DNA from: a virus
Taxonomy: Duplodnaviria; Caudoviricetes
Reading direction: 5' to 3' (one strand)
Length of the DNA: 64,000 nucleotides
Virus record (IMG/VR): IMGVR_UViG_3300032216_001476
Coordinates: 1 to 64,000 of that record
Position 1 is the stretch's first letter. Each line of letters starts with the position of its first letter. This document shows positions 17,161-33,887 of the stretch, piece after piece. The position numbers were made by a program, and so were the translations under genes. Below the pieces are notes generated by a model. The model was not told where the DNA came from, searched no databases, and saw only the letters and a list, made by a program, of their open reading frames with translations.

Positions 17161-17445
17161 TTAATTATTTAAGTCTAAATCAGCTGTAAAAGTTCTAGCT
17201 GATCCAGTCAAAGTATTTGAAGTAGTAAATGTGATTGGATTACCATTGATGGTTCCATAAGGTTGAACAGGTACTGTCCATGGTTTTGTAGTTCCAGTTG
17301 ACCAACCTGGTGTTGAAATAACTGTTGACGCTACCTCTTCTTCTTTTAAAATAAGTAAAGCTTCCTCTAAAGTAAGAGAGCTTTCTTTTATTAAACGAGA
17401 TAGTATGGCTACTTTTTGAGCATGTAAGGTTACTTCTGCTTCCAT
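17161..17445 (-). CDS. Hypothetical protein
   Basis: Coupled to terminase stop; TLEEALLIL motif then low-complexity tail. Confidence 0.6.
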   Translation of the reverse strand: MEAEVTLHAQKVAILSRLIKESSLTLEEALLILKEEEVASTVISTPGWSTGTTKPWTVPVQPYGTINGNPITFTTSNTLTGSARTFTADLDLNN

Positions 17446-19649
17446 TATCTTATATTTTTAAAGGGATTTCTAGGGGGTTGCATAGAATTAGGACCTCTCT
17501 TAGAGCTACCCATATGCCTAAAGGGGCTATAATTTAATTTACTAAATTTTTGGGAGTTATCCAAGTTTTGTTCTGTAACTTCTACACGTTTAGACATTCC
17601 CCTGTTAGATTGTTGCACTTTTGCAAAAGCTACAAGTGCACAAAAAGATACGAGTCTATCCACGTTTACACCATCTTGGTAAGCTTGCATCTCTTTTAAA
17701 AGCATAGGATCTGGTATACGTTCTACACCATATATAGTTTTAACAATTTCACCATCAGGCTTTGTTTCATGATCTAGTTCTTCTTTTAAGAATTGTATAC
17801 CATAAGACAATATATTACCCTTAAACAACGTTCCTACGTTCTTCCACCCATATTCTTGAAACACATTTCTATTAGCACCAATATCTTTTAAGAACAAAAT
17901 CATGTCTTTAGGTACTAAATAACGTTGCTTCTTCTTAGATATCATATGTTGTATAAATAAAGCAACATTGTTCTCCACTATAGTCCAGGCGTTATACCAC
18001 TCTATGAGTAGTTCTAGACGTTCATGAGTTTTGTTTATATCATCAAACCTACCACACCAAGAAGCTACTATCTTATCTCTTTCTATGTGATTCTCCACCT
18101 TACCATTACCTTGATCTTTTATAACCTCAACAGGATTTTTATAAATATAAATAGCACATAGTGAATCTGAAGTAGTTGTTTTTCCTTCTCCAACAGGATC
18201 GACAGAACCATAATACATACCAAATGGTGGATCTTTTGCAGGTCTTTCATATATACACAACACTCCCTCTTTATCTTCTGTTTTTTTAGATATGGGAAAC
18301 TCCATTATAGGAATTTTCCTACTAGGTTTGTCTACAATTTTACCTTCTGCATTTCTAGATAGTTCTAAATACTCAACAGGATATTCTTTATCAGAAATAC
18401 GAGAGAGTTGTTTAGCAATTAAATGAGGAGGGAATACACTCACTTTTCTAGTAGCAAAAGCTTCTTCTATATTTCTAGGTTGCTGTGATACAGTGAGTTG
18501 ATAGGCATCAGGTGCCATATCTTTCTTCATACGTACAAACTCTATTTCTAGAGCTTCTAGTGCTTTTTGTACAAGAGAGTTACCATATTGATCTATATAT
18601 GGTGGCATACTCCATTGTTCAGGTATAAACAACCCTGTTATACCAGGAGTACCATCTGTATCTAAAAGATTAGTATTTACACCATAGAAACCATTTTCTT
18701 CTGGATGTAATATATACTCTTTCATAGGTTCACATTGGTCTAGGTCACCTACAGAACCTGCTGCTATAAATTGACCTGTAATAATATGACCTGATTTAAG
18801 TGCAGGTTTCATAAATCCATAGGTGTCATTCATCTTAGGTGCAATACCTGCTTCTTCATGGAAGAAATACGTAACAGGACCACCTACACCATTTGTAGGA
18901 TCTTTCTCAAATGAATATGAGTTAATAGTGGACTTGTTTCCTTTATAAGTGTCCCTATTGTTTATTCTCACTTTAATTTGTTGTTGCCAAGCACCCACTT
19001 TCTCTGGTTCTGCAGGACGATACCATGCAGTGTGTTCATTAAGAAAGTTCTTATACTCATTGAGAAACTTCCAAGAACCCTTTTCATTGATGTAGTCTTT
19101 AAGACTAGCACCTATTTTTAGTACAGAACCATTCTCAAACCAATACTGATTTATGAGTTTTGCCATATGAAAATAAGAACTAGCTATCTGACGTTTCTTA
19201 AGTATTATAGCATGTTTCCAATGAAGTTCTGCTAATATCTCATATAATGCCATATGATATTGAGCATCTCTCACCTTTGCAAAGTCAAATCTCTTTTCTT
19301 CTTTATCGTAAATAGGGAGAAAGTTCAACCACATATAGTAGTCTCTGGTTATATACCATTGCTTATCACCATTTTTTACTAATATACCTGCTCTACATTT
19401 TAACTTTTGATCATCCCAATAAGTAATAAAATCTTTAGTTTTTGTAGGAGCAGCACAATAATAACCCTGTTTTTGAAACTTTCTTCCTTCAGCATTAAAC
19501 ACTAAAGAGTTTTCATCAAACTCATATTCTCCAGGTTCTTTAAATAAGGGTAATAAAAAATCCCGAAACTCTTCACGAGTGTTAAAACTCGTGAGAGTCC
19601 AGGAAGAATTCTCATAAGTGGGTACGGTTATAAACGGGCTGCTATTCAT
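17445..19649 (-). CDS. terL: Terminase large subunit
   Basis: LKKRQIASS Walker A variant, FFHEEAG Walker B, RNase H-like GSVDP..GK...SDS, IVENN, NVDR. Confidence 0.92.
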   Translation of the reverse strand: MNSSPFITVPTYENSSWTLTSFNTREEFRDFLLPLFKEPGEYEFDENSLVFNAEGRKFQKQGYYCAAPTKTKDFITYWDDQKLKCRAGILVKNGDKQWYITRDYYMWLNFLPIYDKEEKRFDFAKVRDAQYHMALYEILAELHWKHAIILKKRQIASSYFHMAKLINQYWFENGSVLKIGASLKDYINEKGSWKFLNEYKNFLNEHTAWYRPAEPEKVGAWQQQIKVRINNRDTYKGNKSTINSYSFEKDPTNGVGGPVTYFFHEEAGIAPKMNDTYGFMKPALKSGHIITGQFIAAGSVGDLDQCEPMKEYILHPEENGFYGVNTNLLDTDGTPGITGLFIPEQWSMPPYIDQYGNSLVQKALEALEIEFVRMKKDMAPDAYQLTVSQQPRNIEEAFATRKVSVFPPHLIAKQLSRISDKEYPVEYLELSRNAEGKIVDKPSRKIPIMEFPISKKTEDKEGVLCIYERPAKDPPFGMYYGSVDPVGEGKTTTSDSLCAIYIYKNPVEVIKDQGNGKVENHIERDKIVASWCGRFDDINKTHERLELLIEWYNAWTIVENNVALFIQHMISKKKQRYLVPKDMILFLKDIGANRNVFQEYGWKNVGTLFKGNILSYGIQFLKEELDHETKPDGEIVKTIYGVERIPDPMLLKEMQAYQDGVNVDRLVSFCALVAFAKVQQSNRGMSKRVEVTEQNLDNSQKFSKLNYSPFRHMGSSKRGPNSMQPPRNPFKNIR

Positions 19650-20055
19650 TTCCTAGTAGGTATTCTATTTTCTCTGGGTCACCATTTGTTTTTTGGATAA
19701 TCTCTACAAGAACACTTACTCGTGGACTTTTAAATACTCCTTGAATTTGGTTATCACTCCAATACTGTAGATACTTATCTCTAGGAATAGCATTCCAAAG
19801 AGTAGTGTGAGGGTTATAGTGAAAAACCCAATTGTGCAAATGATTTTCACTACCAACTTTGTAAACAGGTTCACTATCCTGATAAGTTTCATTTGTCATA
19901 TTATTTTTTTTATTTGATTTGTATGGACAATGTCTACAGTTATTACGACAACATCTACCTTTTTCCAAGTGGTATTGTTCTGTAAAAACCCACATACCAT
20001 TCTCTATATAATAATGTACATTCTCTATAAGTTTTAACGATTTCCTTTTATCCAT
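19642..20055 (-). CDS. DUF5522-like Cys-rich domain fused to a second small domain
   Basis: YYIENG.WVFTEQYHL.KG.CC.NNCRHCPY; internal Met with A-rich leader. Confidence 0.65.
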   Translation of the reverse strand: MDKRKSLKLIENVHYYIENGMWVFTEQYHLEKGRCCRNNCRHCPYKSNKKNNMTNETYQDSEPVYKVGSENHLHNWVFHYNPHTTLWNAIPRDKYLQYWSDNQIQGVFKSPRVSVLVEIIQKTNGDPEKIEYLLGNE

Positions 20056-20657: not shown

Positions 20658-20761
20658 CTGTAAGGAGAGGACTCGAACCTCTAAACTCTCCGTGGTTCAA
20701 AAACCGCTAAGAGAGCACCACTGAGACAAAGTAGCGTGTTTGCCAGTTTCACCACCTTACA
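20658..20761 (-). tRNA. Atypical tRNA, anticodon GUC (Asp), 35-nt variable arm
   Basis: TGTAAGG/CCTTACA acceptor stem, Leu/Ser-type D arm, CTACT-TTGTCTC-AGTGG anticodon arm, AGAGG-TTCGAGT-CCTCT T arm. Confidence 0.75.
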
Positions 20762-20768
20762 GTTTTGT

Positions 20769-21119
20769 TTATTTAAATGGTACTGCTAGATTTAAGTCTA
20801 GTAGTTCCTGGTTGATATGAAACTCAAAGTTAGGTCCATAATATATTTCAGATAAAGCTCTACCAAACGCATCAAGAGATCTACTCTTAATAAGTATGTT
20901 AGAACCTAATACTAGTTTGTCCATTACATATTGTTTAGCTTCTAGTGCTTTAAGTCTAACGTCTACATCTTTAGATTTTAGTTCAGGTGTATTTACACCA
21001 TAAAATCTACAATGTGATGTCCACTTAATTTTAAAACCTAAATCTATTGTAACATCAATAGTGTCTCCATCAACTATTTTGTTAACCACTGCTTCGTAAG
21101 TATATAAATTATTGATCAT
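20769..21119 (-). CDS. Thermonuclease (SNase) family
   Basis: IVDGDTID...RFYGVNTPE...DAFGRAL. Confidence 0.9.
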   Translation of the reverse strand: MINNLYTYEAVVNKIVDGDTIDVTIDLGFKIKWTSHCRFYGVNTPELKSKDVDVRLKALEAKQYVMDKLVLGSNILIKSRSLDAFGRALSEIYYGPNFEFHINQELLDLNLAVPFK

Positions 21120-33175: not shown

Positions 33176-33312
33176 TAGTCAGGTGGCGGAAGGATAGGGG
33201 TTTCCCCTGTCGTGGTAGAAGCAATAGATGGTTATAGCACTATGGGTAAAAAACACAATGCGTGTGGTCACTATAATGACAGCCCTTGGAGGTTCAAACC
33301 CTCCCCTAACTA
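33176..33312 (+). ncRNA. tRNA-like RNA with D-loop and variable-region insertions
   Basis: TAGTCAGG/CCTAACTA acceptor, TGGCGGAA..TGGTAGA D elements, GGAGG-TTCAAAC-CCTCC T arm. Confidence 0.65.
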
Positions 33313-33801: not shown

Positions 33802-33887
33802 ACCTTGGTGGTGGAATTGGTAGACACGCAAGACTTAAAATCTTGTAACCAGAAATGGTTGTACGGGTTCGATTCCCGTCTAAGGTA
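33802..33887 (+). tRNA. tRNA-Leu(UAA)
   Basis: Canonical class II cloverleaf, CAAGA-CTTAAAA-TCTTG, A73. Confidence 0.95.

Follow-up and report, generated by a model that had tools for sequence, protein, structure and literature searches.

Which role does an RNA play that joins the anticodon of aspartate to the body of a leucine tRNA? The question is raised by a short gene in a 64,000-nt stretch of viral DNA (the window), which belongs to a 95-kb IMG/VR virus record estimated to be 77% complete. The product of this gene, here called the GUC RNA, has class II architecture, which by the textbook is limited to the tRNAs for leucine, serine, tyrosine (in bacteria) and selenocysteine. Our main reading, to which we give a probability of about 0.45, is that the RNA may be processed like a tRNA, charged by aspartyl-tRNA synthetase (AspRS) and used beside routine decoding.

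Structure of the window copy

The gene and its parts are as follows.

20658..20761, minus strand: tRNA-like gene of 104 nt with a class II body and a GUC/U37 loop (Rfam RF00005, 40.3 bits; family covariance model R1, 93.5 bits)
20755..20761, minus strand: 5' strand of the acceptor stem, U1 G2 U3 A4 A5 G6 G7, pairing with 20659-20665
20736..20752, minus strand: D arm of tRNA-Leu type, with a 3-bp stem GUG/CAC and an 11-nt loop AAACUGGCAAA; pairs 10-25 and 11-24 covary
20718..20734, minus strand: anticodon arm CUACU/AGUGG of 5 bp with the 7-nt loop UUGUCUC (20723-20729) and anticodon GUC (20725-20727); compensatory changes in 5/5 stem pairs
20683..20716, minus strand: variable region of 34 nt, predicted to fold into an outer helix GCUCUCU/GGAGAGU and an inner hairpin GGUU-UUUG-AACC, with unpaired U47 U48
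20666..20682, minus strand: T arm AGAGG-UUCGAGU-CCUCU with a canonical T loop; 4/5 pairs covary
20658..20665, minus strand: 3' strand of the acceptor stem, CCUUACA, and the discriminator G73 at 20658, which is kept in relatives

[quoted passage not shown] The trailer after G73 is CUA, so no CCA is encoded; the tRNA-Met and tRNA-Leu genes of the window show the same N73-C ending and likewise lack CCA. A sequence-only reading of this DNA had described a Leu-type D arm, the UUGUCUC loop with GUC and U37, a two-helix variable arm and the missing CCA, all of which were confirmed on the minus strand. The variable arm had been put at 35 nt; its two helices stand, while the recount gives 34 nt. Since the single-sequence folding energy of the window copy is ordinary (z = -0.98), the case for the GUC RNA rests on comparative data.

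Genomic setting

The portal and the large terminase of the record match PHROG families, and the large terminase is about 25% identical to terminases of crAss-like, Flavobacterium and Cellulophaga phages. The neighbouring genes are as follows.

17445..19649, minus strand: large terminase gene (PHROG 6681), with the GUC RNA gene about 1 kb upstream on the same strand
19642-20055, minus strand: DUF5522 protein gene, directly upstream of the large terminase gene and overlapping it
20769..21119, minus strand: nuclease gene, 116 aa (PHROG 452 endonuclease, 1e-25; weak Pfam SNase match)

The GUC RNA gene lies 7 nt past the stop codon of the nuclease gene and 30 nt ahead of the next ORF, and it shares its strand with the DUF5522, terminase and portal genes. 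Because the same-strand gaps to the neighbouring ORFs are this tight, the RNA is presumably co-transcribed with these genes and then cut out. The two ordinary tRNA genes are 11-13 kb away on the opposite strand, in agreement with the earlier view that the gene stands apart from the other tRNAs. One of them, tRNA-Leu(UAA) at 33802-33887 (plus strand), resembles the GUC RNA almost exactly in its D arm and arm junction, in keeping with the family having arisen from a tRNA-Leu body.

The GUC RNA is one of only three tRNA-type genes in this phage, and in many relatives it heads the packaging genes; that so few tRNA-type genes are kept and that this one is placed there implies a real benefit in infection.

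Two observations concern the neighbours themselves. A 50-nt stretch of the nuclease gene (20769-21119) is 86-88% identical to endonuclease genes of marine cyanophages, and the gene beside the GUC RNA may be a mobile nuclease. The DUF5522 gene (19642-20055, minus strand) occupies the position expected for the small terminase subunit.

Conservation in related phages

We took 80 related terminase loci from IMG/VR and found homologues of the GUC RNA by BLAST and motif search. In the alignment of 19 phage homologues, all 380 cells of the 20 core pairs hold standard pairs, and compensatory changes were seen in 13 of the 20 pairs, distributed over all four stems. Acceptor pairs 1-4 are invariant in these homologues, while pairs 5-6 covary. 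None of 500 shuffles matched the observed pairing and compensation, and slid controls were 43-58% paired.

The covariance model R1, built from this alignment, was positive in 35 of the 80 terminase loci with scores of 66-110 bits, always on the strand of the terminase and 30-1900 nt upstream of its gene; the next-best matches, at 34 bits or less, were ordinary tRNAs. Where at least 2.5 kb upstream was available, the RNA was present in 29 of 54 loci. All 35 matches, which were not selected for their anticodon, keep G34 U35 C36 U37 C38 together with intact stems. The proposal of a genuine non-canonical tRNA-like gene is therefore borne out by the retention of GUCUC and intact stems in related phages, and the suggested search for a conserved GUC/U37 gave a clear answer, as it was kept in 35/35 and neither random anticodons nor decayed stems were seen. 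A pseudogene is ruled out by these unselected matches and by the compensatory changes. When the neighbours of 84 phage loci were clustered, only the terminase-region genes of this clade were recovered, with no enzyme among them; that no protein gene regularly accompanies the RNA in phages counts against our main reading.

A family in Bacteroidota and their phages

At least 84 distinct phage copies came from the terminase loci and from scanning IMG/VR with a search pattern; among the copies listed, lengths run from 84 to 171 nt and most are 141-152 nt. With the same pattern, we found at least 120 bacterial genome stretches, almost all from Bacteroidota. The carriers among the matches listed are Pedobacter, Chitinophaga, Cyclobacteriaceae, Saprospiraceae, Cytophagales and some Flavobacteriales. 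There are at least 127 distinct chromosomal copies of 108-192 nt, whose arms of 38-122 nt contain the conserved module described below, and tandem copies are frequent, with five in Persicobacter diffluens as an example. In 151 evenly sampled Bacteroidota genomes, the family was present in 14 at scores of at least 77 bits, the next matches being tRNA-Leu at 52 bits or less.

Across the phage and bacterial copies listed, the variable arm is 14-122 nt long. A covariation-supported module is common to the long arms; it consists of an outer helix, an internal loop, a second helix and a GGGUUGACCAC element; the strands of the internal loop are of the GAUAAA and CUAA types, and the GGGUUGACCAC element adjoins a small palindromic hairpin. 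From this module the window arm retains only a hairpin resembling the GGGUUGACCAC element. The window arm recurs identically in two phage contigs (L172 and L186) whose anticodon stems differ, and in some phages the arm has been swapped for unrelated simple hairpins, down to 14 nt. The RNA of the window is a reduced-arm copy of a larger RNA family of Bacteroidota and their phages. In many phages, the RNA is one gene of an ordinary tRNA array, with the spacing and strand usual there.

The bacterial copies have a recurrent neighbourhood. Among the matches listed, 62 of 104 bacterial loci have a divergent gene for an Lrp/AsnC-type regulator beside the RNA; sufBCD lies beyond the regulator, and a gene for an AMP-dependent ligase is often found downstream. 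The best NCBIfam model for the regulator is AsnC at 157-180 bits, under the model cut-off of 227 bits.

A phage sub-family of 167-170 nt (L016, L029, L030, L031, L013, L005, L007, L017, L023 and L021) carries an extra D-loop hairpin before G18 G19, the loop of which repeats UCUCAG, a core that it shares with the anticodon loop.

Detection by standard annotation

The Rfam tRNA model detects the window copy with 40.3 bits (E 2.9e-7), above the RF00005 gathering cut-off of 29 bits, when it is searched locally or by a careful whole-genome search; the arm is then treated as an insertion. ARAGORN and the fast whole-window Rfam run missed the window copy and reported only tRNA-Met and tRNA-Leu. The long-arm phage and bacterial forms gave nothing in Rfam, so the arm module corresponds to no catalogued RNA. 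One family member had no BLAST match among GenBank phages, an exact 22-mer of the 3' end had zero matches in IMG/VR, and a search of the literature and Rfam found no description or entry for a long-armed GUC RNA family. Short family members are labelled plain tRNA-Asp by ARAGORN, which counts against our main reading. Standard annotation thus overlooks the long members and takes the short ones for ordinary tRNA-Asp.

Coexistence with canonical tRNA-Asp

Is the RNA simply the tRNA-Asp of the phage? Canonical class I tRNA-Asp, with a loop ending in UGUCAC, is encoded by 1-8 genes in each of the five carrier bacteria tested. It is also present in seven of ten RNA-bearing phage contigs, among them the 288-kb genome, which alone is complete; the contigs that lack it are three fragments with an estimated completeness of 9-56%. 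It was not found in the phage record studied here, which is only 77% complete. Because canonical tRNA-Asp coexists with the RNA in 5/5 bacteria and 7/10 phage contigs, we reject this explanation, and the GUC RNA is unlikely to be the sole decoder of aspartate codons.

Fixed nucleotides and aminoacyl identity

The most constant nucleotides lie at the acceptor end and in the anticodon loop. Among the copies listed, U1-A72 occurs in 127/127 bacterial and 81/84 phage copies, G2-C71 in all 211, U3-A70 in 127/127 bacterial copies, and G73 in 84/84 phage and 126/127 bacterial copies; U48 is found in 201/211. Position 33 is less strict, being G or C in 13/127 bacterial and 7/84 phage copies (about 10% of those listed).

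For the loop, an anticodon-blind pattern was run over 401 Bacteroidota genomes, and matches of the model were retrieved as well. In this survey, most copies had the loop YUGUCUC. Position 37 is U in all phage copies examined; the bacterial copies retrieved irrespective of the loop have U there, with a single C. Two bacterial genomes depart at position 34, which is A or U: at G139:C1:3852069-3852399 and G230:C1:4975515-4992053, two copies have UUC and three have AUC, with the rest of the loop unchanged. An A34 or U34 should weaken recognition by AspRS, and these copies count against our main reading. The truly invariant core of the family consists of U35-C36-Y37-C38, G73 and acceptor pairs 1-3. 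G10, a weaker determinant for aspartate, is not conserved, which also counts against the main reading. To our knowledge, a pyrimidine at 37 and a U33 that is not fixed occur essentially never in working decoders; the window copy has U33, but no purine at 37.

The strong determinants for aspartate are G73, G34, U35, C36 and C38, with G2-C71 a minor one (Giegé and Eriani, PMC9976931). All of these are present in the window copy, as the sequence-only reading had stated, and the set agrees with that source (PMC9976931). How closely the nucleotides kept by the family correspond to those read by AspRS is striking. In bacterial tRNA-Asp, G1-C72 is strictly conserved, and in E. coli AspRS it contributes to the placement of the 3' end (PMC9976931); in the window copy U1-A72 stands there instead, a further point against the main reading.

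Comparison with known RNAs

Bacterial tRNA-Asp(GUC), a class I tRNA, shares with the GUC RNA the anticodon, C38, G73, G2-C71, the 7/5 cloverleaf and a location in tRNA arrays. In contrast to tRNA-Asp, with 4-5 nt in the variable region, the GUC RNA has an arm of 34 nt here and of up to 122 nt in the family; it also differs by the Leu-type D arm, by U37 in place of A37 and by U1-A72 in place of G1-C72.

The body is closest to class II tRNA-Leu. The D arm is almost the same in length and in A14, A15 and G18 G19, the A15-U48 pair is common to both, and two unpaired bases stand between the arm and the T stem in each. The family pattern also picks up Bacteroidota tRNA-Leu(UAG), whose D arm is nearly identical. 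However, the GUC RNA has G73 and not A73, which LeuRS requires (as established for E. coli), and an Asp-type anticodon loop; its family arm can be many times longer, and most members contain the conserved module.

Among RNAs with long arms and foreign anticodons, the allo-tRNAs are bacterial, carry non-Ser anticodons with GUC among the commonest, and in some cases come from phages (Mukai et al. 2017, PMC5389517). Their acceptor/T branch is 8/4 or 9/3 and their identity is Ser; roles as missense suppressors or regulatory RNAs were proposed (PMC5389517). The GUC family, by contrast, is strictly 7/5 with all pairs formed, has a Leu-type body and keeps one fixed loop where allo-tRNAs show diverse anticodons. 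Because every homologue forms all pairs of the 7/5 branch, and an eighth pair would join U8 to U or C, the architecture of allo-tRNAs was rejected. The nev-tRNAs of nematodes, which are of the class II Leu type with Gly or Ile anticodons, ordinary class II arm length and leucine charging (PMC3333845), likewise combine a Leu-type class II body with a foreign anticodon, but are eukaryotic.

The sequence-only reading had also considered an 8/5 fold like that of tRNA-Sec. This did not hold, since only the window copy has the C(-1):G73 pair, whereas relatives have A or U at -1. A tRNA-Sec is further excluded by the D stem of 3 bp and not 6 bp and by the anticodon GUC and not UCA. With tRNA-Asn in its role as a substrate of AspRS and GatCAB, the GUC RNA shares U1-A72, G73 and an anticodon readable by AspRS, and the carrier genomes hold GatCAB; it differs by GUC in place of GUU, by the enlarged D loop and, in the family, by the giant arm.

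If the family, with its Leu-type body, aspartate identity marks, pyrimidine 37 and arms of up to 122 nt, holds up, it would represent a new branch of tRNA biology, common to a bacterial phylum and its phages. It also allows one to test whether a relative of tRNA has become specialised for work other than decoding.

A proposed role beside routine decoding

On sequence grounds, the GUC RNA probably does something other than routine decoding, because it is kept in addition to tRNA-Asp, has a pyrimidine at 37 and does not hold U33 fixed. Handling like a tRNA is suggested by its presence in tRNA arrays and by its N73-C trailer, which resembles those of the window's own tRNAs. In our main reading, the RNA would be transcribed with the late genes, excised by host tRNA-processing enzymes and provided with CCA. 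The host aspartyl-tRNA synthetase would most likely load aspartate, reading G73, G2-C71, U35, C36, C38 and usually G34. The RNA could then act in its charged form as a carrier, or it could mimic a tRNA and bind a partner that recognises the UCUC loop together with the acceptor end; what the phage supplies would be a pared-down version of an RNA of its host. That the RNA is processed, is charged by AspRS and acts off the ribosome is what we infer here from the fold, conservation, distribution and coexistence with tRNA-Asp that were observed.

The strongest alternative, which we nevertheless consider unlikely, is a spare decoder, that is, a tRNA-Asp variant that reads GAU and GAC and whose altered loop and arm evade a nuclease, a toxin or a modification requirement. 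The escape of phage tRNAs from host tRNA nucleases through loop changes is an established phenomenon. A spare decoder would agree with the full tRNA architecture, the location in tRNA arrays, the GUC anticodon with its Asp identity marks and the name tRNA-Asp that ARAGORN gives to short members. It agrees poorly with a pyrimidine at 37, almost unknown in working decoders, with the replacement of U33 in about 10% of the copies listed and with A or U at position 34 in two genomes, and it leaves the bacterial copies with their 38-122-nt arms and conserved module unexplained.

We regard it as improbable that the RNA stays uncharged and acts as a decoy, sponge or regulator for a protein that recognises the anticodon loop of tRNA-Asp, such as a nuclease, a modification enzyme or AspRS itself. 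The invariant loop core U35-C36-Y37-C38 would be explained in this way, as would the second UCUCAG loop on the D-loop hairpin of the phage sub-family and the retention of the core by phages that drop the arm module. However, G73 and acceptor pairs 1-3, which are targets of charging enzymes, would be needless for a loop binder but are invariant, and the surveys of phage and bacterial neighbours showed no nuclease or toxin gene linked to the RNA.

Similarly doubtful is the reading that the family is a dedicated aminoacyl carrier off the ribosome. AspRS would load aspartate and a partner enzyme, for which GatCAB under AsnC-type control is a candidate, would use or convert it; pyrimidine 37 and the giant arm would bar the RNA from translation, and stripped phage copies would push the reaction during infection.

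Somewhat less probable again is an asparagine carrier, in which AspRS would load aspartate, GatCAB would amidate it to asparagine and the RNA would act off the ribosome, with the AsnC-type regulator in bacteria. U1-A72, present in 127/127 bacterial and 81/84 phage copies among those listed, is a positive mark for bacterial GatCAB (PMC2811023, PMC4206432). The idea would also agree with the Lrp/AsnC-type gene that adjoins 62/104 bacterial loci among the matches listed, its best NCBIfam model being AsnC, and with carrier genomes that have GatB together with both GlnRS and AsnRS (among five carriers tested, AsnRS was found in 5/5 and GlnRS in 4/5). The presence of GatB in 14/14 carriers is weak evidence, because 126 of the 151 sampled Bacteroidota (83%) have GatB and 0.83^14 is about 0.07. 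We also asked whether carriers avoid asparagine synthetase and did not find it so: an AsnB-type synthetase scored above the curated cut-off in 4/5 carriers, which counts against the asparagine carrier. Moreover, the regulator scores under the AsnC cut-off and the gene is absent near phage copies. The D loop is enlarged (11 nt in the window copy) where GatCAB rejects an extra base; such a base makes GatCAB reject tRNA-Glu (PMC2811023). The asparagine-carrier idea gained no support from the tests made here.

Mischarging by SerRS or LeuRS, which would place serine or leucine at aspartate codons as proposed for allo-tRNAs and nev-tRNAs, is very unlikely. SerRS ignores the anticodon, so the conservation of the anticodon would be left unexplained. 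LeuRS requires A73, and the family has G73. In favour, a long variable arm and G73, both present here, are the marks of SerRS (PMC7609411), the body is of Leu type, and there are precedents in the allo-tRNAs, including those with GUC (PMC5389517), and in the nev-tRNAs (PMC3333845); yet two unpaired bases precede the T stem, which makes the arm junction Leu-like and not Ser-like, and arms that vary in length and shape from 14 to 122 nt among the copies listed fit poorly with an enzyme that reads the arm.

Least credible of all is that the sequence is a chance fold, the remnant of a decayed tRNA-Leu or no more than a site at which RNase P/Z cuts the late transcript. This would agree with the failure of ARAGORN and the fast Rfam run to find the window copy and with its embedding between ORFs (gaps of 7 and 30 nt), but it is contradicted by covariation in all four stems and by a loop and acceptor end fixed across hundreds of phage and bacterial copies, and a bare cutting signal has no need of a fixed anticodon loop.

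Other tRNA-like elements

The window holds a second tRNA-like element of 136 nt at 33177-33312 (plus strand), which gives a weak match to the family model (23 bits, E 0.017). A hairpin is inserted into its Leu-type D arm, and it is an RNA distinct from the GUC RNA. In two other phage contigs, L162 and L164, ARAGORN reports tRNA-??? genes with four-base anticodons (agtc and aata) 313-334 nt upstream of the family member, and these may be further odd tRNAs.
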